DNA from: a bacterium
GTDB taxonomy: Bacteria; Acidobacteriota; Terriglobia; Terriglobales; Acidobacteriaceae
NCBI GenBank assembly: GCA_026225095.1
Contig: JAMFSC010000072.1
Location: 383-64,382, forward strand
Reading direction: 5' to 3'
DNA: 64,000 nt
Positions 44,701-63,610 of this stretch are shown in pieces. Position numbers and translations under genes: made by a program. The notes beneath the pieces were generated by a model. It made no database searches. It was not told where the DNA came from and saw only the letters and a list, made by a program, of their open reading frames with translations. How positions within the stretch are numbered: position 1 is the stretch's first letter; each line of letters starts with the position of its first letter.

Positions 44701-45473
44701 ATCGAAGACCGGTTGTATTCATACAGCGAGCCATGGACCGTGTTGGTGCCGGATTTTGTGACCAGGTTCACCTGCCCACCTGAAGATCTGCCTGTGTCGG
44801 CGTTGGAGTTCGATGTGGTGACACGAAACTCTTCCGTGGCATCGAGCGTTGTACGCAATACACCTGTAAATGCCGCTGGAGCGATCTGATCATTATTATC
44901 CAGTCCATCGAGCGTGATGTTGGTCTGGTCCGCGCGCGCGCCACTCACCGCACCATTGCGGCTTTCGTTCGAGGTCGTCTTGCCAATGAACAGAACCCCC
45001 GGCTGGAGCGCAAGCAGGGTCTGTGGATTGCGCGCTTCGGATGGCAGCGCCATGATCGTCTCATTGTTGATCGCATTGCCGATCGACGCATCGGTCGTAT
45101 TGATCGTCTCCGCGGTACCCGAGACATCGACAGAGACCGTGTCGGAGCTGACCTGCAGGGTGGCGTTCACCGTCGCCGGCTGCGCGACCAACAGATTCGC
45201 CGATACGGTATACCGCCCAAACCCCGTCGCCGTGGCCGTGATCGTATAAGCTCCGGGGCTTAGTTGTTGGAAGGAGTACACACCTTGCGCGTTCGATGTG
45301 GATGTTGCTTTGAATCCAATCGAGTGATTTTCGATCGTGACCACTGCACCGCGAATCACGGCTCCGCTTGCGTCACTGATGGTTCCGTGCACACTTGTCG
45401 ACGCGTTTTGACCAAACGACAACGCTGCAACGCAGAAAAACAGGCAAAGAGCCGCGGTTCGTAGTAGGTGCAA
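41721..45473 (-). CDS. TonB-dependent receptor with an N-terminal carboxypeptidase-regulatory-like domain
   Basis: A signal peptide is followed by a CarboxypepD_reg-like block (GTISDASGAVIRGAVVTIEN...GVYSFQQLSPGAYTITA). A long beta-barrel follows, with a C-terminal aromatic residue (RIEF). The start is TTG, with GAGG upstream. Confidence 0.9.
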   Translation of the reverse strand: MHLLRTAALCLFFCVAALSFGQNASTSVHGTISDASGAVIRGAVVTIENHSIGFKATSTSNAQGVYSFQQLSPGAYTITATATGFGRYTVSANLLVAQPATVNATLQVSSDTVSVDVSGTAETINTTDASIGNAINNETIMALPSEARNPQTLLALQPGVLFIGKTTSNESRNGAVSGARADQTNITLDGLDNNDQIAPAAFTGVLRTTLDATEEFRVTTSNSNADTGRSSGGQVNLVTKSGTNTVHGSLYEYNRSSIGIANDWFNKSGQLQSGEANRPGKLVRNTYGVSLGGPLRKDKIFLFGNYEGNRQNESATVTRTVPTASLRAGNLQYYTNDGSVVTLMPSDVAAMDPNCSGNGTCPTGPGDNPASLALFKSYPLPNGTLSGDGLNTASYTFAAPAPVIQNVYITRLDFNPSDKHRFYVRASMQNDSDSSAMTALPQFPGLPSNKKSTDDSKGISGNYTWVPTSNTVNNLRYGFIRQSIATTGVGSGSYVTFRTLDTPTGMTRSTATIVPTHNLIDDYTWTKGKHTIQVGLNYRRFTYENQTDANSYSSGSSNAYWLLNAGISGLGGSLDPAAFGYAPVSDGSGTAAAFSSNYDFAASMLAGLVDEQTSQFNYTLSGGKTGNLLPQGGKVGRSFRTNEAEYYIQDTWRPISNLTITAGIRHSILQTPYETNGQQVQPTIDIHQWFQTRGQQAALGNSVQPEISFAPSGKVNGGKPLYPINWGNVAPRLAFVFSPITDEGTWMNKVFGGAGRSSIRAGFGIYYDHFGQGLVTNYSRAGSFSLSSSITNPASVQTVDNSPRFTGLHNLPGGLVPSAPSSISYPQTPSDDPTGTGFAITQGLDDHIKTPYSEVFNFSWQRELPGGFTFEADYVGRLGRHLLQQEDLAQPLDLVDPKGGMDYYTAGTMLSQAVDQGRTDVGAIAYWEDLFPDAKTSTMSATQNIYSNLWQYVRGNETAGLYNLDISCDPGCGGKTGRYWPLQYSSLYVTSSLGSSSYNAGQFILRHPMKHNVQLDISYTYSKSLDMGSDSESNPTNNSLYNYGFILDAFNPRKNYAVSDFNTKHLVTADWVLRLPVGTGQRYGGGAGHLANSVIGGWYFSGIARASSGLPFAISDGDGWSTNWEYEGYQVQTGPIKMRKHITSAGSPQAFDDPTAALKNLRDPYPGEAGERNKLVGDGYFNVDAGLHKNVAITERFRLHFAWEVFNVTNSVRFDSHQIDTGSTDGTQVGVYSGLLTQSRRMQLSGRIEF

Positions 45474-45772: not shown

Positions 45773-47104
45773 TCACTGGCCGGTCAGCGTATCTTCGAGT
45801 TCCTTTGCCCAGGCGGCGGCCGTTCCGCGCGCCTCTCGCTTTTCGCGAATCAGGCGAAGATTTCGCGCGGTGGTCTCGGGTTCCCACGGTTCGCGGATGC
45901 AGGGAAGCGCGCAGGAGAGAGCCTTGTAAGCATGGTCGCGATTCTCTTCGAGCACCGCAAGTTCAAGGAGAGTCGCATAGTCCCAGTAGTCGGGCTTAGC
46001 CCTTGCGATCTTGCGCTCGACGCTGTAACGGACGATCGGCAACAGTTCTTTCCTGCGCTCATCCGGCGGGTCCTGTAGCTCCATGAGGGTGACAACATTC
46101 ACCCCGGGGAACGCGTCGCGCCAGTCGGATTCAAATCCACGCAGATAGGTTTCGATCGCTTTGGTCAGATAGCCTGAGGCAAGGGCGGGTTTGCCAGCCT
46201 TGAGGGCGTCCTCCCACAGGTCCTTGTAGACTCTGCCGAGGAGGCCGCAGGTCTCGCTGCTGGGGCCGCGTTCGTCGATGAGCTTCTGCAGGACCGCCTC
46301 CGCTTCTGGTCGACGCTTAAGGCGATTGAGCGCAAACCCGAGCTGCTCCCTCACCATGACCGTATTGGCCAACGGCCTGGAGAAAGCATCCTTGATGAGG
46401 GCGACCATATCCTCCCATGCCGAAACGGCCCGGTACGAGAGCATGAGATCGATTGCGATGCCGGATTCCACCTCGGCGACATCGCCAAGGCCCCGCTGGA
46501 TCGCGCGGACGGCATCCACACCGGCCTTGCGGGCGGCCACGAGTTGTTCCTTGATGTCGGCCGAGTACTCGATCCGGTCGCGAAACACGTCGGTCTTGAG
46601 GTGTTCGATCAAGGGCTCCGGCAGACCGTCGAGGAGCTGGAAGATGGGACTGTCTTTGGACCCTTTGCGCGACTCCTCGATGAAGCGCACGATGATCTCC
46701 TGGGTGGACTTCACGGCGGCAGGATCGAGTGTGCCATCGGGCAGGAGCTTGTACGGAATGGTTCTGAGCATCTGGACGTCAAAGGGCAGCCTGACTCCTT
46801 CGGCCATGATCTGCACCGTGCTCTTGGACTTGAAAGCGTGGCGAACGCCGAGTTCATAGAAGACGTTGGCGTTGGCGGTGGTGAGGTCGGCCACGGCGAA
46901 GGGACAGAGCAGCAGGCGCTCGAACATGGGCTTGTGAATGATGCCGCCCGTGTTCTCCTCGTCCGCGCGGATGGGTTCGAGTTTCGCGTCGCGGATGGCG
47001 GGTGCGATCAGACCCGCGTAAACCTGGTCGAAGTCGATCAGGGTTCCGTCAGCAGAGGCTTTCTTGCCGAACGGCATCAGCACAAAACACAATGGCAACT
47101 TCAC
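45773..47104 (-). CDS. Two-domain protein: Rossmann-like N-terminal head (nucleoside 2-deoxyribosyltransferase/TIR-like by eye) fused to an ASK1/DUF4071-like helical-repeat module
   Basis: The N-terminus reads CFVLMPFGKK...IDFDQVY...CPFAVADLT...NVFYELGVRH. The C-terminal half aligns with the C-terminus of the upstream gene product. The GTG start overlaps the upstream stop (GTGA). Confidence 0.8.
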   Translation of the reverse strand: MKLPLCFVLMPFGKKASADGTLIDFDQVYAGLIAPAIRDAKLEPIRADEENTGGIIHKPMFERLLLCPFAVADLTTANANVFYELGVRHAFKSKSTVQIMAEGVRLPFDVQMLRTIPYKLLPDGTLDPAAVKSTQEIIVRFIEESRKGSKDSPIFQLLDGLPEPLIEHLKTDVFRDRIEYSADIKEQLVAARKAGVDAVRAIQRGLGDVAEVESGIAIDLMLSYRAVSAWEDMVALIKDAFSRPLANTVMVREQLGFALNRLKRRPEAEAVLQKLIDERGPSSETCGLLGRVYKDLWEDALKAGKPALASGYLTKAIETYLRGFESDWRDAFPGVNVVTLMELQDPPDERRKELLPIVRYSVERKIARAKPDYWDYATLLELAVLEENRDHAYKALSCALPCIREPWEPETTARNLRLIREKREARGTAAAWAKELEDTLTGQ

Positions 47105-48531
47105 GAGATGCCTCTTTCATAACAGTCCGCCATGGCCTTCACCTGCGATTCCGGCAGCTTCAGGTAACCGGCGAGTTGGAGTGCCTGCTCCTCCATCGAC
47201 TGGGCCTCCCATGGCTCCAATTGCTGAGCGGCGGCATCCTTGTGATGCTTGAGTCCCTCAGGAATTTGGCCCAGTATGAGCAGCGCATCCCCCTGCGTCG
47301 GCAAAACCCAATGGTTCTTTGCCGGATCCTTGGCGTGTCTGCAGTGATCGAGCACCGCCTCTGCCATCTTTTCTGCCGCGGGTCGATCGCCTGTTCCCAC
47401 CAGCACGAGGTATGCGAGATTGATGCCATGATAGTAGGCTTGATCGTGGTCTGGGCTGGACTTCCCGGTAGCCTGATTGTAGGCAGCTTGATAGAGCTCG
47501 ATGGCCTTGGTCAGATCGTCGCGCTTGCGATTGAACAACCAGCGGCGCTTGAATCGGCCGGCCAGTGTCCCGAGCGCGTCGGTTCCGGAGGGCTTGTGCG
47601 CCAGCAGGAGGCGCATCGCATCTTCGCGGCTGCCGGTCTGCTCGAGAGCGATGGCCAGAAGCACGGCCGCATGGTCGTCCAATCCGTCCGGAGGTGGCGA
47701 ATCCGGGCCATCACGACCGGGCCATAGTTGCCGAATCACATTGCGAAACCTGCCCAATTGAATGGATACATTCGCCGAGCTTTGCACTCCGATTGCGGCC
47801 TTGTCGCCAACGATCGACTGCACGAGGATCTGGACGCAGGAGTCGTTGGGCGACTTCGCGTCGAGCATGGTGATGTGGTTGCCGGGGATCACGCGCTGCG
47901 TCGAGCTTGGGAAATCGGCGAGAGACGAGCCTGGAGGCACAAACTGGTCCATCTCCCCGGCTACCGTCGTGAAGGTAAACTGAGGCACCGTATCAAGCTT
48001 CAACTTGTCCCATGCCGCCCTCAGGCGCGTGATGAAAGCTCCGCCTGCTTCCATGTTCTGGATCTGCCGCTTCCAGAAGAAGAGCGCCCTTGCCTTCACC
48101 AGGCCCTTGCTTGGTGTTCCAAAGAGCACCACATGAGAGGTACGCTTTCTGAGCGCGGCGTCGGTCACCAGGGCTTGCTGGACTACCAGTCCACCCATGC
48201 TGTGGGCGACGAATGCGACGGTCTCATAGTGTTTGATTTCTGGGTGCTCCGCGAGCTTGATTGCGATCTCTTCGAGCTTCGCGTCGGCGCTCCACAGTCC
48301 TACCAGATCAAAAAGCTTGGAGCTGTGGTAGCCGAATCCGCGAAGGTCCCAGTCCTGCAGTGCGTCCATCGGCTTTAGATAGGCGGGGATACTTCGCCAA
48401 GTCGTTCGTACGTCCCCTGTAAACCCGTGGACGAAGATGATGGCGGCCTTGTTTGCCTTGGCCCCAGGCGCAAGCTTCTGCGCGGTGTCTTTATTATTTT
48501 CATCGTTGCGAAAATCTATGAAATCCAGCAT
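47101..48531 (-). CDS. Two-domain protein: alpha/beta-hydrolase (lipase/esterase-like) head fused to an ASK1/DUF4071-like helical-repeat module
   Basis: IIFVHGFTGD is present, as is the nucleophile elbow FVAHSMGGLV. The C-terminal ~230 aa are paralogous to the C-terminus of the downstream gene product. The start is at the MLDFIDF methionine, with GAAGG upstream. Confidence 0.8.
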   Translation of the reverse strand: MLDFIDFRNDENNKDTAQKLAPGAKANKAAIIFVHGFTGDVRTTWRSIPAYLKPMDALQDWDLRGFGYHSSKLFDLVGLWSADAKLEEIAIKLAEHPEIKHYETVAFVAHSMGGLVVQQALVTDAALRKRTSHVVLFGTPSKGLVKARALFFWKRQIQNMEAGGAFITRLRAAWDKLKLDTVPQFTFTTVAGEMDQFVPPGSSLADFPSSTQRVIPGNHITMLDAKSPNDSCVQILVQSIVGDKAAIGVQSSANVSIQLGRFRNVIRQLWPGRDGPDSPPPDGLDDHAAVLLAIALEQTGSREDAMRLLLAHKPSGTDALGTLAGRFKRRWLFNRKRDDLTKAIELYQAAYNQATGKSSPDHDQAYYHGINLAYLVLVGTGDRPAAEKMAEAVLDHCRHAKDPAKNHWVLPTQGDALLILGQIPEGLKHHKDAAAQQLEPWEAQSMEEQALQLAGYLKLPESQVKAMADCYERGIS

Positions 48532-49093
48532 TGCGACACCTTCGATGTGAAGATAGAGACGCCCCCCGGGGGGTACAAGGCGTCGGGCGGAGAGCCCTGT
48601 CCGGACCACGGTAGTGTATAGTCTCCGCCTTGGCCGAGGTAGCATTTATTTGGTTGTTACTTTTCGAAGCTGCCTCTGGGCTGCGTAAGCGTTCTGAAGC
48701 ATGACCCCGCGTAGACATTCGACCAGTACGACCGTAGGGGCACTCGATGCGTTTTTTCAACCATGCACAAAGCATGCTAAAACATGGGCATTGAATAGTC
48801 GGGCTCTCGTCATTCCACGTTAGCCATCTCGCGAGTTGCTGAGCCCGAACTCAGCGCACAACGCCCCGAATCAGGGAGATGCAGGCCGGAGAAAAGCCCT
48901 GCCCGCCGGGTGTCCTCAAGATGCTGAGGGAACAATCGACTAGAAAGGGAGATCGCCCCAGATCGGGCGTGAGTTGGCAGGCGTCTCTCCTCGCCCTCAC
49001 TTTTTTGGCGAACTCATACAATATCTCTCCTTCCGATGCGTTAACACCTACAGAGACCCTAGACCTCCGCAGGGAGACAGAAGAGGATGCAGG

Positions 49094-49663
49094 ATGTCAA
49101 GCCAGGAATGGACGATTGCCGAGCAGGACCAGTTCATCGCCGAAGCATTGCAGCGCGATGAACCGCGTCTGCGAAGTTTCATCGGCAAAAGGGTCTTCGA
49201 TTCCGGCGACGCGGAGGATGTGCTTCAAGATGTGTTCTATGAGCTGATCCAGACCTATCGAATGATGAAGCCGGTAGAGAAGGTGACGGCCTGGCTCTTT
49301 CGAGTTGCGCGGAATCGCATTACCGACCTCTTCCGCAGGCAGCGGCCTGATTCTCTGAATGAGCCGATTGGAGGAGAGGCGGAGTCGGGTGTGCTGCTCG
49401 ATCTGCTGCCGTCAGACGACGATGGGCCGGATGCTGCCTACGCACGCAACCTACTCTTCGAATCACTGGATGAAGCACTCGAAGAGCTTCCCGAAGAGCA
49501 GCGCAATGTGTTCATCGCCCATGAACTGATGGGCAGGAGCTTCAAGGAGATCTCCGCTGAGTCAGGGATCAGTGTCAATACGCTTTTGTCGCGGAAGCGT
49601 TACGCGGTCTTGCACCTTCGAGAGCGCCTCCGCGAGATTCGGGAAGATTTTGTAAAGGAATGA
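49094..49663 (+). CDS. ECF-type RNA polymerase sigma-70 family factor
   Basis: Region 2 is present (DAEDVLQDVFYELI, WLFRVARNRITDLFRR). Region 4 is present (LPEEQRNVFIAHELMGRSFKEISAESGISVNTLLSRKRYA). Confidence 0.9.
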   Translation: MSSQEWTIAEQDQFIAEALQRDEPRLRSFIGKRVFDSGDAEDVLQDVFYELIQTYRMMKPVEKVTAWLFRVARNRITDLFRRQRPDSLNEPIGGEAESGVLLDLLPSDDDGPDAAYARNLLFESLDEALEELPEEQRNVFIAHELMGRSFKEISAESGISVNTLLSRKRYAVLHLRERLREIREDFVKE

Positions 49664-50037
49664 GGGACTCTGTGAGAAGTCATCGTGCACTGAAAACAAT
49701 AAGGGTTCTTGTCATCGTCATCGTCGCGGTTGTTGTCTTCGGCGAGGTTGTAATGCATCTTTGGAATTGGCTGATGCCGGGCATCTTCGGGCTGCGAGCC
49801 ATCACGTTTGTAGAAGCCCTGGGGCTCCTGCTCTTGAGCAAGATCCTGTTCGGGGGTATCCATCGTCACGGCGGCGGACACCGGGGCTGGAAGCGCCATA
49901 TGGAAGACCGCTGGTCCAGGATGACTCCGGAAGAGCGAGAGCGCTTTCGCTCGGGAATGCGCGGCAGGCGTGGCTGCGGGTTTGGCCCATTGAGCCCGGA
50001 GGAGCAACCTCGTACCGAGCAGGTTCCGGCCCGGTGA
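49660..50037 (+). CDS. Small two-TM membrane protein with a His/Gly/Arg-rich tail (candidate sigma-factor partner)
   Basis: An ATGA overlap joins it to the sigma gene. Two hydrophobic helices are followed by HRHGGGHRGWKRHMEDRWSRMTPEERERF. Confidence 0.65.
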   Translation: MRDSVRSHRALKTIRVLVIVIVAVVVFGEVVMHLWNWLMPGIFGLRAITFVEALGLLLLSKILFGGIHRHGGGHRGWKRHMEDRWSRMTPEERERFRSGMRGRRGCGFGPLSPEEQPRTEQVPAR

Positions 50038-50069
50038 CGGCGGTCGGTGCGTACTGGCAGGTGGAGACC

Positions 50070-50255
50070 ATGATGCCTTTGAATCATTCGCAAACTTTGA
50101 ATTCTTCGACGCCGGAACAGTTTGATGCTTCACTCGGCGAACTTGTGGCCGAGTTGCAGCGGGAGAACATGCACCTGCAGCGTCTTGTCTCCGAGCTTTT
50201 GCTCAAGAACCAACAACTTCGCAGCGAAGAGCGCCTGCGCAAGGCTACGATGTAA
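50070..50255 (+). CDS. Small (61 aa) predicted coiled-coil protein
   Basis: The ATG is preceded by GGAG at 50063-50066. A heptad-like segment is present (LGELVAELQRENMHLQRLVSELLLKNQQLRSEE). There is no family assignment. Confidence 0.4.
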   Translation: MMPLNHSQTLNSSTPEQFDASLGELVAELQRENMHLQRLVSELLLKNQQLRSEERLRKATM

Positions 50256-50299: not shown

Positions 50300-53200
50300 T
50301 CAGACCCTGACGATCGGGGTATCGCGCATCAGGCCAAGACGGGCCTGGCAGAAGTATTCGAAACGGATGCCAAAGGTGCGGCGTGTCTGACTCCAGTAGC
50401 GCTGGAAACGTGGACTGCGCGCCCAGCGCATAAACATGATCGCCCAGCCACGATTATCCGGATGTTCCCAGAAGTCATCAAGCCGAAGGTCCATGAAGAC
50501 ATCTTCCATGAGTTGGGTGAGCTCTAGCGCCATGCACAGTTCTTCGCTGGCCTGATGTGGGTTGCCGGCGCTCGGCGGTACGACCGCGATCGGTGGATGG
50601 ATGTGCATGAGCTCATCGACAAAGCCATGCAGTGCGGGTGACTTACGGAACTGCTCCCACATTCGTTCGAGCGTTTGGGTATGCCTCAGAAAGGCCTCGC
50701 CGGTCGTGCGCGCCGGAGCAATCACATCCGCCAGCTTCACCGCCACGTCGACCGCGGAGCTACCCGGCTGGTTGCCACGCAGTGAGTGCCGAACGACGTG
50801 CTGGCCAAGCTTCCGATAGCTTTCGAACTGATCTTCCGAGAAGAACTGGTTCGCAGTCGTCTCATGCGGGAAGGTGGGGTGAACGGAGCGATACTGCGCG
50901 ACGCCTACATCCTCGTCTCCGGAGACCGACGCCTTGAGATAGATGAGGTAGCCGATGCTGCCATTGCTGTACTTGATGGTGCCTACAGCGCAGTGCGCGA
51001 GGCTGAAACCATCCTTCTGGTCACGAATGCTCTTCACGTCGATGTCGATAACTGCACCGAAGTCCGTTGCACAGATTCGCACAAGATTGCCCAAACCCCC
51101 AAATTGCAGGAGCTCGTCACACTCCGCGTCGCATGCGATGATGACCTTGCAGCGGCGGCGGATGAGTTCGTACACTCCGAGGTTTTCGAAGTGGCCGCCG
51201 TCAGAGACATTGAGGAACATCCGCGTCTCGTCTGCGGTTCCGAGCAGCTCCTTGGTCAGATAGTAAAGGCTAAAGCTCAGGCCGCTCTTGTTCCACGCGC
51301 GCTTGTGTCCTGGGTTCGGGAACCACCAGCCGAGGCGCACGTTGAACATGGTCAGCAGGAAAGCGACCAGCGGGTTGGTGTTGTAGCCCATGTTGGGGCT
51401 GGCCGCAGCGCCCGATATGGCTACTGCCTGGCCCAGCTTGACGCCCCCGGCGAAGCTCGCCTTGGCTGTGCGCGGTGTGGGGCCGCCGGTCGGTGCGAAG
51501 CCCACCTTTGCGCGGTCGGCTCCGCAGTGCAAGGGGGTCAAGGTGAAGGATGCACTGTGCCGGCTGTGGAGTACAAGATCCGAACTTCCGGCGAGATTCA
51601 AGGTGCAATTGAAGATCGGAAACGGGCCGCGGTACTGATATCTGAGACTGCTGAGTGGAAGGTCGTCGTTGAAGTCGAACTTGGTAAAGGGATGCGGCTT
51701 GCGCAGACCTGGAGCCCAACGGGTCGCCCCCAGATAGCAGCGCACCAAACGATTGCGGTAGAACTGGCTAAGGCCGAAGATGTTAATCTCGAAGAACCAC
51801 GAGAACAACAGTCCAACCGCGATGACGACGACGCAGGTGCCGAGGAACTTCAGGCGGTCCATATCGTTCAGCGTCGTCCAGTACTCCGCGTCAGGCGAAT
51901 CACTAGTGGCGAAGTAAAGCAGGAAAAAATGGAGAGCGGAGGCCGCACCAATGACCGCTCCAAGGATGAACAGCAGGCCACCGACCCGCGCAAGAATCTC
52001 GAGTCCAAGCTTCTTGCCGGGCGATCCATCCCCCGCGGTTTTGCTGCTATTGCCGGCGAAGAGCCCGGCAACGACCGTGCCCATCCACGTAGCGATGGAG
52101 CCCCATCTTACGGTCGAGTACTCCATGGAAAAGAGATAGGTCGTCAGCATCGGACCGAAGATTGCTACGGCCGTAAGCACGAGGCCGAGCGCACAGTAGA
52201 TCATCAGCCATGCCCCGAATCTCGTCCACCACTCGCGTTGGGCTTCGTTGGAATTACGGCCAGATAGACCGATGAAGATGACCACACTCACAATGAAGGC
52301 GCCGAGCACAAGCGCCGGCCCAAAGACGAACGCATACGATCCATAGCGGCCAGGGTCGGGGCTCACCCAGTGGAGGAAGAGGTAGAGGATGGCGCAAACC
52401 AGAAGATAGAGGACCGCGAGGCAGAGGGTGCCGATCCAGAGGGCTCGCAAGAGGCGTTCACCGTAAGGATGGGCTCTGACGGTGGCCAATCTGACGCGAT
52501 TGAGGAATCGGTCGGCCAGGCTCATGTGACATGGCTTGCTCCACTCCGCAGCCTGCGTGGCGGCTGCGACCTGTTCTCTCAAGGCCTCCAGTTGGGCGAC
52601 CCCTTCAAGCGTTACCCTTGGGCCTGCAGCCTCCGCCTTCGAGAGTTCTTTCGCCAGCTTCTTCGCAGCCTTCGCCTTTGCGTCTGCATCGAGCGCAGCG
52701 TAGAGTTTCTTTTCCAGATTCTTCGCAGGCTCGATGTAGGCAGGTGGCAGATGCGGCTTCAGAGCGAACCACCCGATCAGCAACATCCCTCCGAGATGGA
52801 GGGCCAGCAGTGGCAACATGGTCGAAGCGGCCTTCTGGAGGACGTAGGAGAATGCGTGATATTGCTCAGGCGGCCCCCCGCTCCAGACCGGACCCCGCGC
52901 ATCATGCCAAAGCATACTCGCGATGATGAAGGAACCGATCCAGGATGGAAGCACGGCCAGCCAGCGGATCAGGCTCGCCTGGGGCGAAGCCTTCCCGGTC
53001 TCCACGCGGTTGCCGATGAAGTTGTAGATCAACGTGATCAACACCAGCAATGACATGGCAAAAGCAATCAGCCCAACCCAGGGATGGCTTGCCTGCCGAG
53101 ACAAGGCAAGGAAGACCATTTGGCCGACGAGCGCAGACAGAAGCAGCGCGAAAAGCCAGATGAGCCCCGTGAGTTGAATAAGAAAGGTATTGCGGATCCA

Positions 53201-54898
53201 GCTTGCACCGAGCGTCCAGGTATCGGCGCTCAGTAGCCCGGTGATGGGTGCGAGGTAGCTGGCGTAGGAGCGGAGATGCGCGATCGATTCATCCCAGCAG
53301 GTTGCTCGGCCAAGCCAGTGACGGGTTCGAAGGACATTGGCCACAAGCCACGAGCCGATGAAGCCGCCACCTGAAACGGTCGAAAGGTAGTCCACCTGGC
53401 GAAGCAGGTCGAACTCTTGCAGCCCCTGCAGGACACCGAGATTGAACGTGGCGCTCCGGATGCCGCCACCCGAAAAGGCAAGGCCGATGCGGTTGTGCGG
53501 CTGCCTCCCCGTGATGATGCGCTCGCTCCAACCGAGGAACGGAGACCGGCCCGTCGGCGAATCGCTCGAATCTTCCGGAAAAGCAGTCACGGTATAGTTC
53601 CGCAATGATCGCTGCCGATCAATCTCGCGCAACTCCTTGTCGAAGACGGACCTCCAACGTTCGTTCGAACGCGGCACTTTCTTCTCATCCGGATATTGTT
53701 GCCGGTTGCATGCGTAGTGCTCGCGCTCGTCACTCACCTCGACTGCATTTTGCACCAGATCGCACACAAAGTCGAAGACCGAGCGCAGCACCTCTTCGCA
53801 CCGCTTGAGCCGTTCCTCGCGAACGTTCATTCCCTCCAGCGTTGCGCGAAAGCGCAGCAGGTGGATCCACGACACGCGTGCATAGTTCACCGATGCATTC
53901 GCCGACACCTCCGCGCGTAGCACCCGAGCGATCCAGTAGATCTCCGCGAGGGCAAAACGCGCTACGACTGGATTTGTAATCATCTCGTCTCCGCCAGGCT
54001 TCAGCGTGACAGGCTCATCGCATGAGCCGCTTTCGGAGACCATGCGCTGCTGAAGCCGGAGGTAGAACTCAGCGTGCGCGTCGACCCACGCGACCAACTG
54101 CTCGCTGACGCGTTCGAACCGCGCGTTCTGCATCTGGGCCTTGGCCCGCGACTGGACACGCGCCTCTTCCTGGATCCGCAACTCGGTTGGGTCAACCGTT
54201 GGAATCGGGTCCGGATTCATGTCCGTCCGGTCGACCGGAAGAAGGCGGCGCAGCCAGAGCTCGTACTGGGTCGTCTCATCGAGATCGTTCTGGAGGGAAA
54301 CTTCCGGTTGCCGAGGATCGTTGTGGAACCCGTCAAGGAAGCCCAACGCCTCTTCCCAGTCCAGCCTGGACTGCATCTCGAGAAACCTTGCGTAGTCCTC
54401 CTCGCGGCATCTGCCCGGACCATCCGGGGGAGGTGGGACGGCAATCGGAAACCAGCGTCGATTCGGCAGTTCGCCGACGCGATCGCATGGCAGAGGACTG
54501 GTCTCCCAATCCATCGGGAAATAGCGTCCTGCCAGCATTCGAACGCCAAAGTAAAGATATGCGTTGGCATAGCGGAGAAAGGCCTCGGAATTCGCCACTA
54601 GGGCACCCAGGCCAGGCGTCCGCACCGCCTGCAGTTCAATATCCGTCAACACCCCTACCTGGTGGCCAATCTCGAGCAGCGTAAGCGCTTCCAGAGCCTC
54701 GTCGAGTCGCAAACGAGTCTGCACGATAAGATCGCCGCGGGTCAGCGTGAACGCTGCGTCGTCGTGTGGACGCAGGAGCGCACGAAGGTCCTCCTCCTTG
54801 ACCTCGGGGCGAGTGAGATCGTCGAAGATCTTCCAAAGATCGTCTCCGTTCCGGTTGCGCCCGGCAATCAGGCGCTCTTTCGCACCCGGATCACTCAT
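50300..54898 (-). CDS. Giant (1532 aa) membrane-embedded patatin/cPLA2-like phospholipase
   Basis: The oxyanion motif AFSGGGIRS lies at about aa 475-481. The nucleophile-elbow-like STVSGGGFIGSW has its Ser at about aa 509. About ten hydrophobic helices and a Lys/Ala-rich coiled coil follow. The catalytic Asp motif NVSDGGHFENLG lies at about aa 1233. The N-terminal ~470 aa and C-terminal ~200 aa are unassigned. Confidence 0.85.
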   Translation of the reverse strand: MSDPGAKERLIAGRNRNGDDLWKIFDDLTRPEVKEEDLRALLRPHDDAAFTLTRGDLIVQTRLRLDEALEALTLLEIGHQVGVLTDIELQAVRTPGLGALVANSEAFLRYANAYLYFGVRMLAGRYFPMDWETSPLPCDRVGELPNRRWFPIAVPPPPDGPGRCREEDYARFLEMQSRLDWEEALGFLDGFHNDPRQPEVSLQNDLDETTQYELWLRRLLPVDRTDMNPDPIPTVDPTELRIQEEARVQSRAKAQMQNARFERVSEQLVAWVDAHAEFYLRLQQRMVSESGSCDEPVTLKPGGDEMITNPVVARFALAEIYWIARVLRAEVSANASVNYARVSWIHLLRFRATLEGMNVREERLKRCEEVLRSVFDFVCDLVQNAVEVSDEREHYACNRQQYPDEKKVPRSNERWRSVFDKELREIDRQRSLRNYTVTAFPEDSSDSPTGRSPFLGWSERIITGRQPHNRIGLAFSGGGIRSATFNLGVLQGLQEFDLLRQVDYLSTVSGGGFIGSWLVANVLRTRHWLGRATCWDESIAHLRSYASYLAPITGLLSADTWTLGASWIRNTFLIQLTGLIWLFALLLSALVGQMVFLALSRQASHPWVGLIAFAMSLLVLITLIYNFIGNRVETGKASPQASLIRWLAVLPSWIGSFIIASMLWHDARGPVWSGGPPEQYHAFSYVLQKAASTMLPLLALHLGGMLLIGWFALKPHLPPAYIEPAKNLEKKLYAALDADAKAKAAKKLAKELSKAEAAGPRVTLEGVAQLEALREQVAAATQAAEWSKPCHMSLADRFLNRVRLATVRAHPYGERLLRALWIGTLCLAVLYLLVCAILYLFLHWVSPDPGRYGSYAFVFGPALVLGAFIVSVVIFIGLSGRNSNEAQREWWTRFGAWLMIYCALGLVLTAVAIFGPMLTTYLFSMEYSTVRWGSIATWMGTVVAGLFAGNSSKTAGDGSPGKKLGLEILARVGGLLFILGAVIGAASALHFFLLYFATSDSPDAEYWTTLNDMDRLKFLGTCVVVIAVGLLFSWFFEINIFGLSQFYRNRLVRCYLGATRWAPGLRKPHPFTKFDFNDDLPLSSLRYQYRGPFPIFNCTLNLAGSSDLVLHSRHSASFTLTPLHCGADRAKVGFAPTGGPTPRTAKASFAGGVKLGQAVAISGAAASPNMGYNTNPLVAFLLTMFNVRLGWWFPNPGHKRAWNKSGLSFSLYYLTKELLGTADETRMFLNVSDGGHFENLGVYELIRRRCKVIIACDAECDELLQFGGLGNLVRICATDFGAVIDIDVKSIRDQKDGFSLAHCAVGTIKYSNGSIGYLIYLKASVSGDEDVGVAQYRSVHPTFPHETTANQFFSEDQFESYRKLGQHVVRHSLRGNQPGSSAVDVAVKLADVIAPARTTGEAFLRHTQTLERMWEQFRKSPALHGFVDELMHIHPPIAVVPPSAGNPHQASEELCMALELTQLMEDVFMDLRLDDFWEHPDNRGWAIMFMRWARSPRFQRYWSQTRRTFGIRFEYFCQARLGLMRDTPIVRV

Positions 54899-55858: not shown

Positions 55859-57043
55859 TCAGACCGCATGCAGGGCTTGCCTGCGCGCTTCCTCAAGGCT
55901 GTCGGCCTTCGGCAGTCGCAACCCCACCAGCAGAAGCCCCAGCGCGCCAGCCACAAGCACCAGCAGCCCCGCCCTTAAGGAGTGAAGATACTCCGACAAC
56001 ACACCCGTCAGCCATGGCATGACCGCAGAGGTAGCGCCACACAGAAAGAAGATTGACCCAGTCTGACGACGGCCAAGCACGCGAGTCAAGAGACTGGGAT
56101 AAAGAGGTCCCAGGCCAAACCCGATCGCGAAGGAACAGGTCAGCAACACGAGGCCATTCGGAATCAGCAAGGCCGAAGCACCGCCTGCAACAAGCGTCAG
56201 CAGCCACTTAAAAGACCACTGCAGTCTCCTCTCGGAAGTCGGCAGGGAGCCCAGGAGTCGGCTCGATAACAACCCAGCCCACAGGCACGTCGGCGCAGCG
56301 ACGACCATCGCCACACCATGCCGCGATCGCTCCGCGTAGGTGGCGAGCCAGGCGCCGCTCGCCGCCTCCACACCCGTTGAGAGCATCGTCGCCACGATGA
56401 GTGGCAGTGGAATACCTGCCAGGCCAAATCGCGAGTCCCACACCCCCCGGATGCCCACGAGGAAACCCACCCGGTCGAGGGCTCTGGGGCGCAAGGCAAG
56501 GGGCCTCATCAGGGCCACGGCAATTGCCAGGAGCACAAATCCAGTGGCGAACGCCATCAGCACGCCGCGCGGAGAACTGGTACGTAGACCATGGGTCACC
56601 AGCAGCGGGCATAGCATCGCGCCGACGGCCCAAAACAGATTGAGTCGAACGTTCTCCGCGATGCGGTCTCCATCTGGACGCTGCCGCATCAGGCTGACGC
56701 TGGTCATCGTCATGCCCAGACCAAGCCCCCACAGCGATCCCGTCATCGTCACCCACACCGAGACATGCGCCCACGTCCAGGCCGCCATAGCAAGCAGCAC
56801 TAGTCCAAACGTCAGAGAGGTTCGAAGTTGTCGCAACAGCAACAACGATCCGATCGCCGAACCAGCCGTAATGCTAAAGAACAACCATCCAGCGCCGCCG
56901 TCCTGCATGTGCCAGGCGGAGAGCATCGCCGGCAACAAAGCTCCCGGCAGAGCGCACCCCGCGCCCGCACCGACGAAGCTGCTATAGAGCAGAATGGTCG
57001 ACAAGCGAGCATGCCGAGACTCGGCTTCACTCTCCATCGTCAC
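55859..57043 (-). CDS. MFS transporter
   Basis: About 12 hydrophobic segments are spread across the protein. Its start overlaps the stop of the upstream GH144-like gene. Confidence 0.8.
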   Translation of the reverse strand: MTMESEAESRHARLSTILLYSSFVGAGAGCALPGALLPAMLSAWHMQDGGAGWLFFSITAGSAIGSLLLLRQLRTSLTFGLVLLAMAAWTWAHVSVWVTMTGSLWGLGLGMTMTSVSLMRQRPDGDRIAENVRLNLFWAVGAMLCPLLVTHGLRTSSPRGVLMAFATGFVLLAIAVALMRPLALRPRALDRVGFLVGIRGVWDSRFGLAGIPLPLIVATMLSTGVEAASGAWLATYAERSRHGVAMVVAAPTCLWAGLLSSRLLGSLPTSERRLQWSFKWLLTLVAGGASALLIPNGLVLLTCSFAIGFGLGPLYPSLLTRVLGRRQTGSIFFLCGATSAVMPWLTGVLSEYLHSLRAGLLVLVAGALGLLLVGLRLPKADSLEEARRQALHAV

Positions 57044-58380
57044 CTGCGCGCCGCATGACTCTTGTCGCGCCGGAAGCCGGCCTTCTTCATCGCGATGCCG
57101 ACCTCGCGGTTCCGCGCAAACGTCTCCCAGACAAACCCCGAACGCAGGTTCTCCGCCATCAAGAGTCCGATGCCAAGATCAATACCGAGCACGTCTGCAT
57201 CGTACCAGTTGTTCTGCGGATGCAATGCATCGCAGAAGCCATACCGACCCCAGCAGCGGTCTCCGTATCCGTCCTTCAGCGCTCGCAGCACCTTCAGGCA
57301 GTCGGCGGGCAAAAAGGGCAGAGATCCCGCTGTTGCGCACGGAACCACGCTCCCATCAACCTTCCCAATCAAAGGAGGCCCACCCCATGCCTGGTAGCCA
57401 CCCTCCGAGTCTGAAGCCGTGATGCCCCAATGGGTCTCCTTGTAAGGCAGCGCGGAATCCTTCTCCGCAAGATCCATGCAGAACGCCTTATGCGCGCGCG
57501 TCGCCGTCACGGAGTTTTCGAAGTAGTTGGCGTATGCGTCGCGCCGGTTGCGAAAATCGAAGAAGGCATGGCTGTACTGGTGGATGAACAGCGGGTCGCC
57601 GCCGCCGATGTAGGTTAAGCCGTCATAGCTGATCGTGGGGCGCGACCACGCCGTCCATGCAGTCGCATCAACCGGGTAGGTCGGCGAACCCATCGCGAGC
57701 AGAGGGATCATCATCAACTCGCAGTAGTGATTCCAGGTTGCGGAGAGAAAGCCCTTGCCCGGATTCCAACCCATCGAGAACTGCGGTCCGCCATTCATCA
57801 TCCAGGGCCAGTCCACACGCTCATAGATCGTGGTCGCCAAGCGAACGATCTCCGGGTCTGATGCAAAGTGTGCCCGCGCGGTCAGCACGCCGCACAGCAG
57901 AAGCGATGTGTCGATCGACGATACCTCGCTCCAACTCATCGGCTCACCCGTGTCGACGTCGTTGAAGTGAAAGAAGAACCCATGCTCATGCCGCAACTCG
58001 CTCGCATGGAATCGCAGCGTCCTCAGCACCTGCTCCTTCAACGCCGTCTTCTCACCATAGCCACGCTGGTCCGCGATACACAAGCCGGCCAGGCCGAAAC
58101 CGGTCGCTGCGATGCTCGCATTCGTGCGCGGATCGCGCCGGCCATCGGTATTCGCCGCCGCCGCGCGATCCAGTACCTGCCCGGTCTTCGCACCCGTCTG
58201 CTCCGTGAAGAACAGGCAAGCCCGCCGCTCCATCTCTCCAAGGAAAGCATCGTCCGCGCGAGTCAGCCTTGTTGCGTGGCCCTGAGCGAGCAATCCCAGC
58301 GGCAGAGCAGCCGCGGCCACTCCGCCAAACAGCATGCCAAGCACATCACGTCGAGTTGGTTCGATCGCTTCCTCGCTCAT
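57040..58380 (-). CDS. Glucoamylase-like / GH144-type (beta-1,2-glucanase-like, DUF3131-type) glycoside hydrolase with a Tat-like signal
   Basis: A twin-arginine-like N-terminus is present (TRRDVLGMLFGGVAAAA). The blocks IAATGFGLAGLCIA, FFFHFNDVDTG and SIDTSLLLCGVL match my recollection of this (alpha/alpha)6 family. An ATGA overlap joins it to the GH39 gene. Confidence 0.65.
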   Translation of the reverse strand: MSEEAIEPTRRDVLGMLFGGVAAAALPLGLLAQGHATRLTRADDAFLGEMERRACLFFTEQTGAKTGQVLDRAAAANTDGRRDPRTNASIAATGFGLAGLCIADQRGYGEKTALKEQVLRTLRFHASELRHEHGFFFHFNDVDTGEPMSWSEVSSIDTSLLLCGVLTARAHFASDPEIVRLATTIYERVDWPWMMNGGPQFSMGWNPGKGFLSATWNHYCELMMIPLLAMGSPTYPVDATAWTAWSRPTISYDGLTYIGGGDPLFIHQYSHAFFDFRNRRDAYANYFENSVTATRAHKAFCMDLAEKDSALPYKETHWGITASDSEGGYQAWGGPPLIGKVDGSVVPCATAGSLPFLPADCLKVLRALKDGYGDRCWGRYGFCDALHPQNNWYDADVLGIDLGIGLLMAENLRSGFVWETFARNREVGIAMKKAGFRRDKSHAARR

Positions 58381-59960
58381 CGGCCAGACACCACAATCAG
58401 CGCCAGGCCATGCTCCGGCACGCTGATCTGCAGGCCGCCACCCTTCAGCCGAAGATGCTCCGCAGGAGCCATCGCCCCCGCTACCTGTAGGCTGCGAATC
58501 TGTTCCTGCGTCAAGCTCCCCGGAGGCCGACCCATCGCATCGAACGCCTTCAACGAGTTCCCATGCATCTCATCCACACGATACACCTCGACCGTCGCGT
58601 TCGCCGGAACATGGTCGAAGCGAAGATCGAAGCTCTTCTTGGCGCCCATCGCGCCGGATGGCATCGTGTAGGTCGCTCCCTCCCCGGTGGGCGGAGCGTA
58701 GTTCCACAACGCAGTGACGACCGACCCATCCGCCCCCAACGTCGCCAGCGCACTCTCCGACGTCAGAGCGATTCGCTTGTCCCCTAGTCGGTGAAGCACC
58801 GCAAAAGCATTGAATGATGGCTTTGGAATGGAGTCCGCCGCGATGATTCCGAAGCCGCCGTAGAAGGGCGAATGCACCACTCCCTGCTCTTCAAAGACAT
58901 CTGAAAACGCCCAGTAGGCCATCGTATCCGTCAGCCCGTCGCACAGGCGAATGGTGTTCGCGAGCCATGGCCCCATGTAGGTACTGTCGGTCACATTTGG
59001 CTCATTCGCATAGCTCGCTCCATACTCGGAAACGATGAGGGGAATCGTCGGATATGCTGACTTCACAATCTGCTCATGCACCATCTTCACGGCGCGCCAC
59101 ACCATGAACTCGCGCGGAACATTCTCGTTCGTCTTCAACACATTATCCGCTGTATCGTTTGCATAAACGTGCGTGGAGACGAAGTCGACCGGAACGCTCT
59201 GGGCCTTCGTATGTGCCAGAAAATCCCCCACCCACGCTGCCTGGGCCGTCGACGGACCACCGACCTGCAGCCTTGATGATACCGCCTTCAAAGTCCGCGC
59301 CGTGTGGTCGTACAGCTCCCAGTAGGTGGCCTGCTTGGGCGTTCCAGCCCAGAAGTCCAGGTTCGGTTCATTCCACACTTCGAACTTCCATGTGGCGACC
59401 TCTCTGATGCCATAGCGTTCGATCAGGTGCACCGCAAAAGCCCGCAGCATGTCGTCCCACAACGCATAGTCCTTGGGTGGCGATACGATGGGGTGGTACC
59501 AGAACGGATGCACCACCGCGGGGTCGGCCGCCATCTTCCTGGGCATGAAGCTCAACTCCACATAAGGCTTCACCCCATTCGCCAACAGACCATCGTAGAT
59601 CTGATCGATGTAGGAGAAGTTATAAGTTGATGCGTCATGCACCCTCTCCGCCGCCAAACCGGGATTCTTCACCACGCGATCGGGATCATACAGCCCTACT
59701 TCATCCATCAGGATGCCATGAAACCGAATCGATTCGAAGTTCGTCGCCTTCTTCACAGTCCGAAGATCGTTCCGATAGCTCTCACGGAGCGACAGGATAG
59801 CGCGGCCTGAACCGAACGTCTTCTCCCAGAAGTGCGGGAATGGCGTAGTTGCCGCCTTCGCACTAATGCGAATCTGTTCCTGCGCTCGAGCGGTTTCTCC
59901 GTAAAACGAGAAAAAGAACAACAATAAGCACATGAGTTTGTTACATGAATAGCGCATCAA
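58377..59960 (-). CDS. Glycoside hydrolase family 39-like (beta-xylosidase-like)
   Basis: A signal peptide is present. FPHFWEKTFGSGRA, IRFHGILMDEV and WKFEVWNEPNLDFW (catalytic acid/base NEP) are present. Confidence 0.8.
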   Translation of the reverse strand: MMRYSCNKLMCLLLFFFSFYGETARAQEQIRISAKAATTPFPHFWEKTFGSGRAILSLRESYRNDLRTVKKATNFESIRFHGILMDEVGLYDPDRVVKNPGLAAERVHDASTYNFSYIDQIYDGLLANGVKPYVELSFMPRKMAADPAVVHPFWYHPIVSPPKDYALWDDMLRAFAVHLIERYGIREVATWKFEVWNEPNLDFWAGTPKQATYWELYDHTARTLKAVSSRLQVGGPSTAQAAWVGDFLAHTKAQSVPVDFVSTHVYANDTADNVLKTNENVPREFMVWRAVKMVHEQIVKSAYPTIPLIVSEYGASYANEPNVTDSTYMGPWLANTIRLCDGLTDTMAYWAFSDVFEEQGVVHSPFYGGFGIIAADSIPKPSFNAFAVLHRLGDKRIALTSESALATLGADGSVVTALWNYAPPTGEGATYTMPSGAMGAKKSFDLRFDHVPANATVEVYRVDEMHGNSLKAFDAMGRPPGSLTQEQIRSLQVAGAMAPAEHLRLKGGGLQISVPEHGLALIVVSGR

Positions 59961-63000: not shown

Positions 63001-63610
63001 CGCTGCTGTTGCTGCCCGCACCTGGCGAGGAGCTGCCCGGAAGATTGTTGCCGCCGCCGGAACTCTGCGATCCGTCGCCAAAGACGCCCGGCGCCAGCTG
63101 CACAAGCTGGAACACATCCCGTGCCGCTGAAGGCATATGCTCGATCTGGTTCGAATCCACCGTGCCGCTGATAGAAGCTGTCGCCGTCTCGATCGCCGGT
63201 CGCTCATCGCCCGAAACTGTGACGGTTGTGCTGGCATCACCAAGCAACAACTTCACATCCACCCCGTTCTGCTGCTCCGGAATAATGGTGATGTTGTTCA
63301 GCACCTGTTGCTTGAAACCCGGGGCCGCCGCCGTCAGCTTGAAGTGGTCTGGCGGCAGCGCATTGAAGTTGTAAACGCCACTCGCATTCGACGTTGCCGT
63401 CGTCGTGTGATTGTTTTCCATGTCGGTCAGCGTAAGGGTGGCGCCAGCCACGACTGCCCCGTCGGGGTCCGTCACAGTGCCCTGGATCGACGCCCGAAAC
63501 TGTGCATGGGCGACGCTGCCGCAGGCCAGGACCCCGGCGAGCATCGTCAGACCAAGCAGGGCCTGACGCGTACGCTCTTGGATCTTTGCGAGTTTTGATA
63601 GATCAAACAT
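60095..63610 (-). CDS. TonB-dependent receptor with an N-terminal carboxypeptidase-regulatory-like domain
   Basis: A signal peptide is followed by GTVTDPDGAVVAGATLTLTD...GVYNFNALPPDHFKLTA. The C-terminus ends ARFSF. The start is ATG 63610 with AGGAGG upstream; the ORF track extends to 63679. Confidence 0.9.
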   Translation of the reverse strand: MFDLSKLAKIQERTRQALLGLTMLAGVLACGSVAHAQFRASIQGTVTDPDGAVVAGATLTLTDMENNHTTTATSNASGVYNFNALPPDHFKLTAAAPGFKQQVLNNITIIPEQQNGVDVKLLLGDASTTVTVSGDERPAIETATASISGTVDSNQIEHMPSAARDVFQLVQLAPGVFGDGSQSSGGGNNLPGSSSPGAGSNSSGIFKTENGPQASANGGQTQTNGIQIDGISTVSAVWGGTSVITPTEDSVGSVKVLSNGYDAENGRFSGAQIQVTSKTGTNQFHGSLFFRANRPGLNAYQRYNGANTFNTGSPSDRGLLRDTTRSNQYGGSVGGPILHDKLFAFFAYETQRNNASTQTTGWYETAAFRALAPAGSIASKYLSFAGAAPNAIGRSDIPCANVGFIEGVNCRTIAGQGLNLGSPLTSGLGKQDLTWQNSTNPGVGSGLSSTADISFYTLANPTAQVGAQYNGRLDADATKKDHLAFAIYWVPLTTTSYQGTVRAYNLFHHSQINDAYSAIWNHVFSPTFLNEARVNDAGWRWNEVETNPQEPFGLPQAQVDGIGNLTGGTQLAFFGAPGPSNFNQHTYTYKDVATKVQGNHNIKFGGDVTRLYYLNNPTYSARPGYNFFNIWDFLNDAPRSESGSFNPVTGTPTTNRQDNREDLYGFFVHDDWKARSNLTLNMGLRYSYFGPLSSKQNNLGVVQFGTGSSTFTGLSVRQGGNLTNSQKGNFGPQFGFAYNPSQFDRKLVVRGGFGLNFNQTEIAITGNAGSNPPYILNANFSNSTIQNGVASIDPRIVYAVAASTTSLFGYPANPNAIGGFNAANLPTSGGATVTAFQANQPTPYTEHYSLDTQMDLGHQLVASIGYQGSLGRHVIVQNQLYITALALGYAQNPLVQNVDYFANTGHSNNNSLLVGLKKQMSHGIMFDAEFNYAKSMDTGSSPYYEDPYPFRPDLAYGRSDYNYGKAFKLYAMWQPVFFHNNSLLSKIADGFSFSGIYNIHGGFPFTPVYNTGNNLYYGSSGYNSLRPAAYLGGAKRIRSNDAFENGKPNLNFPNIAASGTSTPYFALPATGIPTSGTAYALPQLPGVERNSFNGPGYQDLDATVAKSFGFPHARILGEGAKMEIRADAFNLFNQINLNPGSIINNVLSQNFGQAQSALTGRTVNLQARFSF

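Follow-up and report, generated by a model that had tools for sequence, protein, structure and literature searches.

Can a lipase of the patatin/cPLA2 type retain a single catalytic domain when its catalytic serine and aspartate lie on either side of a polytopic membrane module? The question is raised by a gene on contig JAMFSC010000072.1 of an Acidobacteriaceae assembly (GCA_026225095.1), of which a stretch of 64,000 nucleotides, hereafter the window, was analysed. The ORF list and translation give this gene (50300..54898, minus strand) as a single open reading frame (ORF) with an ATG start and a product of 1532 amino acids. An earlier note, made from the DNA letters alone, had described the product as a patatin/cPLA2-type Ser-Asp enzyme with its dyad parted by a polytopic membrane module, and both the motifs and the helices modelled with AlphaFold2 (AF2) bear this description out. 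We propose, with somewhat better than even confidence, that the protein is a stand-alone predicted acyl hydrolase of the inner membrane which belongs to the patatin/cPLA2 superfamily and has a cytoplasm-facing active site. The gene and its parts are as follows.

50300..54898, minus strand: whole gene, integral-membrane cPLA2/patatin-like protein of 1532 amino acids by prediction; stop codon at 50300-50302; full-length homologues are 50-81% identical
53504..54898, minus strand: N-terminal all-helical domain, residues 1-465, specific to the acidobacterial clade (AF2, Foldseek)
53228..53503, minus strand: catalytic half 1, residues 466-557, with strand, Gly-rich loop, helix, strand, nucleophile elbow and two helices; contains the match to Pfam Patatin positions 1-47
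53453..53473, minus strand: oxyanion-hole or phosphate-binding motif SGGGIRS, residues 476-482 with Arg481; coordinates verified, invariant across the family
53363..53383, minus strand: nucleophile elbow STVSGGG, residues 506-512 with Ser509; coordinates verified, S-T-V-S-G-G-G invariant across phyla
51722..53227, minus strand: inserted membrane module, residues 558-1059 (hydropathy, ten long AF2 helices, conservation map of 326 sequences)
52463..52753, minus strand: Lys/Ala-rich helical extension of the cytoplasmic loop between transmembrane helices (TM) 4 and 5, residues 716-812; lineage-specific in a 117-sequence alignment
50765..51721, minus strand: catalytic half 2, residues 1060-1378, with the remaining core strands, the Asp motif and a segment FPHETTxxQFFxExQFExYRxLG (AF2, Foldseek, conservation)
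51176..51205, minus strand: catalytic Asp motif SDGGHFENLG, residues 1232-1241 with Asp1233; coordinates verified, D-G-G-H-F-E-N invariant
50303..50764, minus strand: C-terminal helical domain, residues 1379-1532, with AF2 helices at 1382-1521; kept in most of the family and missing from a minority

Motifs and fold of the two catalytic halves

All motifs quoted in the earlier note are present at verified coordinates. AFSGGGIRS occupies residues 474-482, where SGGGIRS fits the superfamily G-G-G-x-[RK] loop after strand 1 and falls inside a match to Pfam Patatin (PF01734; residues 473-521, profile positions 1-47 of 191, E 2.9e-7) that lies above the gathering score. Ser509 is included in STVSGGGFIGSW (residues 506-517), and this elbow region aligns to GISGS of cPLA2 delta. 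The spacing from Ser509 to Asp1233 is 724 residues; the latter is part of NVSDGGHFENLG (residues 1230-1241), where it stands in the context FLNVS-D-GG directly after an AF2 strand (1228-1232) and fits the D-G-[GA] motif. In an alignment of 76 sequences, S476, G477-G479, R481, S506, V508, S509, G510-G512 and D1233-G-G-H-F-E-N are all invariant, and [FL]SGGGIRS, STVSGGG[FY] and SDGGHFENL[GA] are essentially unchanged in about 70 distant homologues. Because the Ser, the Asp and the Gly/Arg loop are invariant across phyla, we argue for a working Ser-Asp dyad.

Structural modelling points to a common fold. An AF2 model of residues 440-1532, built from the 76-sequence alignment, reached a mean predicted local distance difference test score (pLDDT) of 80 and a predicted template modelling score (pTM) of 0.70, the latter value suggesting a defined mutual arrangement of the protein's parts, and it contains core strands on both sides of the insert. 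Half 1 is modelled as a strand (471-476), the Gly loop, a helix, a second strand (504-508), Ser509 and two helices (511-524 and 536-546), and half 2 contributes strands between residues 1095 and 1322, including the one immediately before Asp1233. When this 1,093-residue model was compared with the PDB using Foldseek, human cPLA2 alpha (1cjy) ranked first (prob 1.00, 386-408 columns), followed by cPLA2 delta (5iz5; prob 0.99, up to 546 columns), and plant patatin (1oxw) was aligned over only 90-99 columns. The top PDB sequence match of the family profile is also cPLA2 delta, in the GGGxR..GxSG region, with half 1 matching cPLA2 delta residues 323-377.

Covariation provides a further line of evidence. 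Mean-field direct coupling analysis (DCA) of 325 sequences (effective number, Neff, 184) placed the inter-half couplings 533-1061, 536-1063, 535-1064 and 525-1064 within the top 120 pairs, among which about 0.06 chance couplings are expected for that inter-half patch. Since this cluster (525/533/535/536 with 1061/1063/1064) is beyond chance, the entry and exit of the insert are predicted to be in contact, and the points where the chain exits the catalytic domain and returns to it likely touch each other, as for a domain insertion.

Several observations weigh against a single reassembled patatin-type domain. The elbow reads T-V-S-G-G as opposed to the canonical G-x-S-x-G, the first Gly being replaced by Thr (occasionally Ser) family-wide, although Ser509 and the Gly residues that follow it are invariant. 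AF2 confidence is only 41-60 in parts of half 2, and the Foldseek alignments to cPLA2 (386-546 columns, E about 5e-3) may cover mainly this half. A Pfam search with half 2 alone from six diverse homologues found nothing even at E<=10, and after in silico excision of the insert the Patatin hidden Markov model (HMM) match (1-47 up to 1-93) still ended short of the DGG motif. PLA2_B (PF01735) remained below its gathering score, with 8.5 bits on the full protein against a cut-off of 23, and gave 11.4-21.1 bits or no match, over PLA2_B positions 1-64 only, on cores spliced from the window protein and from three homologues (Crenothrix, a Chlorobiaceae metagenome-assembled genome (MAG) and a Thermoanaerobaculia MAG). 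A phmmer search of the spliced core against the PDB returned nothing useful. Taken together, it is likely but not proven that the two halves reassemble into a single catalytic domain around the insert. As judged from its motifs, the protein is best regarded as a member of the broader patatin/cPLA2 superfamily with an unusual T-x-S-G-G elbow, and its assignment to the cPLA2/PLB family fails, with PLA2_B below the cut-off and no C2 domain.

Among characterised enzymes, group IVA/IVD cPLA2 (1cjy, 5iz5) is the closest comparison, as the top structural match and the top PDB sequence match for half 1. It shares the GGGxR loop with Arg, the Ser-Asp dyad and a long Ser-to-Asp spacing that results from an active-site-capping insertion, and its C-terminal F-P-x-x-[ST]-T...Q-F...F..Y..LG segment is presumably the counterpart of the similar segment in half 2. 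However, the insertion is a soluble amphipathic cap in cPLA2 and a predicted ten-helix integral membrane bundle here, PLA2_B scores (8.5-21 bits) stay below 23, and the window protein lacks a C2 domain, is bacterial and would be permanently membrane-resident, whereas cPLA2 is recruited by Ca2+. Pat17 and bacterial patatin-like phospholipases (PF01734) have the GGGxR/K loop, the nucleophile Ser and the DGG Asp motif in common with the window protein, in which the Patatin profile is matched above its gathering score. In contrast to Pat17, in which Ser and Asp are about 140 residues apart, the window protein has its dyad residues separated by 724 residues, matches only profile positions 1-47, aligns to 1oxw over 90-99 columns and has the T-V-S-G-G elbow.

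The membrane module, its orientation and the terminal domains

In a Kyte-Doolittle hydropathy analysis, the stretch from residue 568 to 1044 contains 9-10 strongly hydrophobic segments, and AF2 models ten long helices at 558-1035 followed by an amphipathic helix (1041-1059), in agreement with the roughly ten hydrophobic helices that had been read between Ser and Asp. Model confidence is highest for the bundle, where the helices have a pLDDT of about 90 or more and the block pLDDT is mostly 86-97. A polytopic membrane module does split the dyad, but the size of about 700 residues first given for it needs correction: 724 residues is the Ser-Asp spacing, and the insert proper comprises about 500 residues (558-1059), because the remaining approximately 170 residues before Asp1233 are ordinary core. 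Similarly, the Lys/Ala coiled coil described in the earlier note is present in the query, but it is a lineage-specific extension of the TM4-TM5 loop which is found in only 6 of 117 close homologues, residues 726-800 being 92-94% gaps in their alignment.

Conservation within the module, mapped across 326 diverse members, is poor in the membrane helices and strong in the elements of the cytoplasmic face. Conserved motifs on this face are WxRN..Q (567-575), REWWxRxG (888-895), AGxSxK (948-953) and NxF..QFYRNRLVRCYLGA (1039-1059), with longer conserved stretches at 541-575 (LRxYxxYLxP...WxRN..Q) and 877-895 (GxGR...REWWxRxG). The conservation map contains no invariant intramembrane polar residues, Pfam matched nothing in the module, and Foldseek found no PDB fold or transporter match for the bundle above prob 0.16. 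Two candidate features were rejected, namely an internal duplication or inverted repeat in the bundle (hhalign prob 0.3-2%) and a GxxxxGKS sequence resembling a Walker A motif, found where TM8 ends in the family consensus. The latter was dismissed because its Lys is replaced by Asn in the window protein and because it is located at the end of a membrane helix.

The orientation of the module can be predicted from three features. Neither a signal peptide nor a hydrophobic segment precedes half 1 in the query or in the homologues examined, and the approximately 70 distant homologues always have 7-11 hydrophobic peaks between Ser and Asp and zero ahead of the first motif. The helix count of ten is even, which would place both catalytic halves on the same side of the membrane. 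Lysine and arginine (K+R) make up 15 of 109 residues in the proposed cytoplasmic loops, with 18 more in the long TM4-TM5 loop, compared to 5 of 71 in the opposite, outer loops. Based on the even helix count, the absent signal peptide and the loop charges, the most likely location of the catalytic domain and of the two terminal domains is the cytoplasm, where the active site would be directed at the inner leaflet.

This orientation bears on whether the protein could be a periplasm-facing or exported toxin or virulence lipase (ExoU, VipD or PlpD type) directed against other cells or the outer membrane, as many bacterial patatins are secreted toxins and one betaproteobacterial homologue has sub-threshold peptidoglycan-binding-domain matches in its N-terminal extension. 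The Ser-Asp patatin core of ExoU and VipD is likewise followed by a C-terminal helical domain, and half 1 has a weak sequence match to VipD. However, these enzymes are soluble, secreted and activated by host cofactors, whereas the window protein lacks a secretion signal, as do the homologues examined, and has ten membrane helices that would hold it in the inner membrane with its catalytic halves, according to the positive-inside bias, in the cytoplasm. Secretion-system, chaperone and POTRA/barrel genes are not linked to it in the loci compared. We consider an exported toxin highly improbable.

The terminal domains surrounding this core are more variable. As described in the earlier note, the N-terminal region of approximately 470 residues is helical and resembles nothing recognised: AF2 models the first 474 residues as an all-alpha domain with confidence (pLDDT 87.7, pTM 0.89), the best Foldseek match in the PDB has a prob of only 0.18, and Pfam, NCBIfam and PADLOC give zero matches, with neither a C2 domain nor any other Pfam domain in residues 1-470. 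Zero matches to the NCBIfam and PADLOC libraries were obtained for the entire 1532-residue protein as well (PADLOC at E<=1). Alignments with distant homologues start at query residues ~382-472, so that only the last N-terminal helix (about 410-435) is common to them, and extend as far as residue ~1523. Many of these homologues have other N-terminal extensions, or 170-200 extra residues beyond the conserved C-terminal domain. The C-terminal region, which had likewise been called unrecognised, forms a conserved helical domain (DDFWEHPDNRGW...GIRFEYFC) to which Pfam gives no match, and it is absent from the homologues at L027, L041, L043, L044 and L085 and from an 837-residue Rhizobium form. In a betaproteobacterial MAG, the homologue (L047:5164-9579) has an N-terminal extension with sub-threshold matches to PG_binding_1 and PG_binding_2 (E about 1e-3). 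This peptidoglycan-binding-like extension, located upstream of a lipase predicted to be cytoplasmic, could be a ligand-sensing module.

Family distribution and genomic context

The architecture is widespread. More than 1,400 relatives were recovered by a word-indexed protein search, and nearly all of the best 120 are 1,350-1,570 amino acids long, with four shorter ones (1,131-1,346). Those of the 120 that are named are labelled 'patatin-like phospholipase family protein' and belong to the Acidobacteriota (such as Granulicella sibirica, Terracidiphilus and Sulfotelmatobacter). A HMMER scan with residues 440-1532, exhaustive over 1.84 billion cluster representatives (clusters at 50% identity), recovered 6,782 clusters at E<=1e-30 and 12,027 at E<=1e-10, and relatives are encoded in at least 599 GTDB species genomes from many phyla. 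The matches listed include Acidobacteriota (Terriglobia, Bryobacterales, Vicinamibacterales and Thermoanaerobaculia), Gamma- and Betaproteobacteria (Luteimonas, Lysobacteraceae, Tahibacter, Crenothrix, Methylococcaceae and Burkholderiaceae), Verrucomicrobiota, Gemmatimonadota, Methylomirabilota and others. Plasmid or chromid records with a relative number 38 and include Rhizobium, Sinorhizobium, Methylobacterium, Burkholderia and Hymenobacter, and no homologue was found in 50,697 phage records. The minimal form, encoded on a Rhizobium plasmid, is the 837-residue protein, which consists of half 1, about eight membrane helices and half 2 and lacks the terminal domains.

The earlier view of the protein as an atypical patatin is appropriate relative to characterised enzymes but not to its own relatives, as the genome and cluster counts reveal a very large conserved family. 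The architecture is conserved, is common to thousands of bacterial proteins and is not a one-off. In the literature searched, we found neither a patatin with an intradomain membrane insert nor a characterised housekeeping lipase family with the same insert, and a 2026 review of patatin-domain lipases is silent on transmembrane segments. Because the distribution is patchy, non-syntenic and partly plasmid-borne, the gene is best described as an accessory gene.

These homologues also address the concern that the ORF is not a single real gene but the product of mis-assembly, gene fusion or pseudogene decay. The window DNA is metagenome-derived, from root nodules according to its sequencing run, and a homologue on a Hymenobacter plasmid is annotated as two coding sequences (CDSs), yet the uninterrupted architecture is found in hundreds of independent genomes, complete isolate genomes included, and the catalytic residues are invariant. 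On the basis of homologues with the same architecture, an artefact is effectively refuted. The Hymenobacter case (H. volaticus plasmid NZ_CP095064.1; L089:3104-6735) comprises CDSs of 782 and 392 amino acids with the break near TM9/TM10, and this pair, with Ser and Asp in separate proteins, could reflect a frameshift or pseudogene, or else a protein that is naturally split in two.

Downstream of the gene, the window contains two pairs of genes which the earlier note had cited as lying near it.

48974-49663, plus strand: extracytoplasmic function (ECF) sigma factor gene, downstream of the patatin gene and convergent with it
49660-50037, plus strand: ORF for a two-helix membrane protein of 125 amino acids, with its ATG overlapping the sigma stop codon; probably an anti-sigma factor
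47101-48645, minus strand: alpha/beta-hydrolase (DUF676-like) of 514 amino acids with a C-terminal TPR-S (Pfam), 1.65 kb from the patatin gene
45773-47104, minus strand: 443-amino-acid protein with MAP3K_TRAF_bd (PF13281, E 8e-44) and TPR-S (Pfam)

The hydrolase and MAP3K_TRAF_bd genes (45773-48645, minus strand) overlap by 4 nt and together look like a two-gene conflict-type module. The second of these had been called TIR-like, which its matches to MAP3K_TRAF_bd and TPR-S, and to no TIR model, do not support. Upstream of the patatin gene, a c-type cytochrome gene lies on the same strand across a 343-nt gap that contains a weak promoter-like site, and the patatin gene appears to be monocistronic. 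A 177-amino-acid ORF on the minus strand (49600-50133) was considered as a downstream partner and rejected as a shadow of the plus-strand sigma/membrane-protein pair.

Flanking ORFs of 87 loci were compared all-against-all and clustered, and no neighbour is conserved among them; the top flanking ORF family, TonB-type barrels, occurs in 7 loci. The linkage of the hydrolase/TPR-S pair to a patatin gene recurs in no other locus of this set, and 15 gammaproteobacterial loci (mostly Lysobacteraceae) have almost no synteny around the gene. Five inspected loci range in context from housekeeping genes to conflict-like genes. Since no neighbour is conserved across the 87 loci, the gene is predicted to be stand-alone, with the TPR-S pair and the ECF sigma module unrelated to it and the window neighbours coincidental. 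The significance that had been attached to their proximity is therefore lost, the sigma pair moreover being convergent with the patatin gene. Pfam matches among 137 immediate neighbours (L001-L087) are heterogeneous, with what appears to be a mild excess of serine hydrolase/lipase genes (Abhydrolase_1, 6; Beta-lactamase, 5; Lipase_3, 3; Patatin, 2).

The same loci are relevant to the possibility that the protein is a self-contained sensor-effector, whose terminal domains sense phage or damage and release a pre-positioned lipase onto the cell's own inner membrane with no partner. Patatin effectors of the cyclic-oligonucleotide-based anti-phage signalling system (CBASS) are known to kill cells, and, like one of these, CapV, the window protein would be a patatin-type lipase that acts from the cytoplasm on the inner membrane of its own cell. 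The patchy occurrence in many phyla, the limited synteny, also among Lysobacteraceae, the carriage on plasmids and chromids, the clade-specific N-terminal domains with optional C-terminal domains or extensions, and the conflict-type neighbours (TPR-S in the window, CHAT and a C11 peptidase in Granulicella, PLD and MZB at L003) would all suit such an effector. However, CapV is small, soluble, activated by cyclic dinucleotides and encoded beside a CD-NTase gene, whereas the window protein is predicted to be integral to the membrane, and neither a cyclase neighbour nor a PADLOC match to the protein was found at the loci and neighbours scanned. PADLOC models gave zero matches to the protein even at E<=1 and matched only a handful of the 137 neighbours, where 11 models from three systems (PDC-M03B, mads and PDC-S33) were each matched by a single neighbour. 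The analogy to CBASS and abortive infection drawn in the earlier note is not upheld by these results. Furthermore, homologues are absent from the phage records, no conserved immunity or partner gene was found in the 87 loci, and other loci lie amid housekeeping genes (YchF, HAD and ABC transport). We regard a sensor-effector as conceivable but doubtful.

Some further features of these loci were recorded. An unannotated protein of 560-700 amino acids without Pfam match is encoded upstream of the homologue, directly so in Granulicella sibirica and two genes away in a second acidobacterial genome (L001:5751-7859 and L003:4270-5961; 26% identity over 615 amino acids, E 5e-31), and this is the only non-trivial neighbour common to any of the first seven loci. 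Within the window, two CarboxypepD_reg and OMP_b-brl_4 outer-membrane barrels of about 1,200 amino acids each (41721-45473 and 60095-63679, both minus strand) bracket the region. Between them are genes for a major facilitator superfamily (MFS) transporter, a glucoamylase-like protein and a GH39 protein (55859-59960, minus strand), an arrangement that resembles a carbohydrate-uptake locus. Most of the window's first 28 kb has a G+C content of about 0.60-0.66, with 0.58-0.60 at 6-10 kb; the value falls to about 0.54-0.56 between 28 and 38 kb and is mostly 0.56-0.61 beyond that, and the GC skew is unusually strong over 1-6 kb (+0.3 to +0.4) and +0.16 to +0.24 over 14-28 kb.

Proposed mechanism and significance

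Based on these results, we propose that one catalytic domain, comprising the GGGIR loop, Ser509 and Asp1233, is split directly behind the nucleophile-elbow helices by a ten-helix bundle of about 500 residues, located roughly where soluble patatins and cPLA2 have a helical lid or cap, and that the two halves fold together again beneath the membrane. The interfacial segments (541-575 and 1039-1059) and the loops REWWxRxG and AGxSxK may form a junction that serves as a lipid portal. The membrane module and the interfacial segments would anchor the active site at the membrane, probably with lateral access, such that a lipid from the inner leaflet of the cell's own membrane, putatively a glycerolipid, could reach the Ser-Asp dyad laterally and be deacylated or transacylated. 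The clade-variable terminal domains probably regulate this activity.

Such an organisation appears unlike that of CapV, ExoU/VipD or PNPLA6/NTE. NTE is large and membrane-bound, with a patatin domain, regulatory domains and an active site exposed to the cytosol, and in size, membrane attachment and orientation the window protein is predicted to be similar. In contrast to the window protein, where the membrane module is placed inside the catalytic domain, NTE has a single N-terminal anchor and cNMP-binding (cyclic nucleotide monophosphate-binding) domains outside an uninterrupted catalytic domain; a Pfam scan of the 1532-residue protein found no cNMP-binding domain.

The chemistry or substrate could also differ from that of a phospholipase. 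The protein might transfer acyl groups, as an acyltransferase or transacylase, or it might hydrolyse a membrane substrate that is not a phospholipid and is bound by the bundle, for which lipoprotein acyl chains, ornithine or hopanoid-linked lipids and membrane-spanning lipids are candidates. PNPLA and cPLA2 enzymes have transacylase and lysophospholipase activities, the bundle is large and confidently modelled with conserved cytoplasmic-face motifs, serine hydrolases and lipases are mildly over-represented among the neighbours, and Acidobacteriota, in which family members abound, are unusual in their membrane lipids. However, the family is equally present in Proteobacteria, Verrucomicrobiota, Bacteroidota and on rhizobial plasmids, where phospholipids are ordinary, conserved polar residues that would signal a specific binding site within the membrane are absent, and lipid-biosynthesis genes are not linked in the loci compared. 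A different chemistry or substrate is therefore improbable in our assessment.

With regard to the role of the proposed inner-membrane acyl hydrolase, the weakest step of our interpretation, we infer an accessory and horizontally mobile enzyme of membrane-lipid turnover or remodelling that does not belong to any defence system of several genes. We prefer regulated turnover or remodelling of lipids to a role in defence because every direct test for an association with defence was negative. Nevertheless, a conflict or stress effector would be just as consistent with the patchy, non-syntenic and plasmid-borne distribution and with the swappable terminal domains. A bolder version would make the family a new class of integral-membrane lipases in which the ten-helix bundle replaces the lid and gates the substrate, and each protein combines a membrane-integrity sensor and executioner: swappable terminal domains would detect phage or envelope stress and open the gate, whereupon the cell's own inner leaflet would be hydrolysed. 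We consider this combination of claims rather unlikely.

To our knowledge, all structurally studied patatin/cPLA2 enzymes are soluble or peripherally recruited, and a central question that cPLA2, ExoU, CapV and the PNPLAs all raise is how a lipid is pulled out of the bilayer. Enzymes of this class are well known; what is new is the predicted placement of a membrane module inside a cPLA2-like catalytic domain in a large family. If the catalytic domain is hard-wired into a ten-helix module, the family would provide a natural model for lateral substrate access and represent a new lipase architecture, and its members include the culturable Granulicella, Luteimonas, Methylobacterium and Rhizobium. 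It also exposes an annotation gap, since databases label the members only generically, Pfam recognises a quarter of the domain, and the membrane module and the N- and C-terminal domains are without models. Should the protein be a true regulated lipase of the cell's own membrane, it would bear on bacterial lipid homeostasis or programmed cell death.

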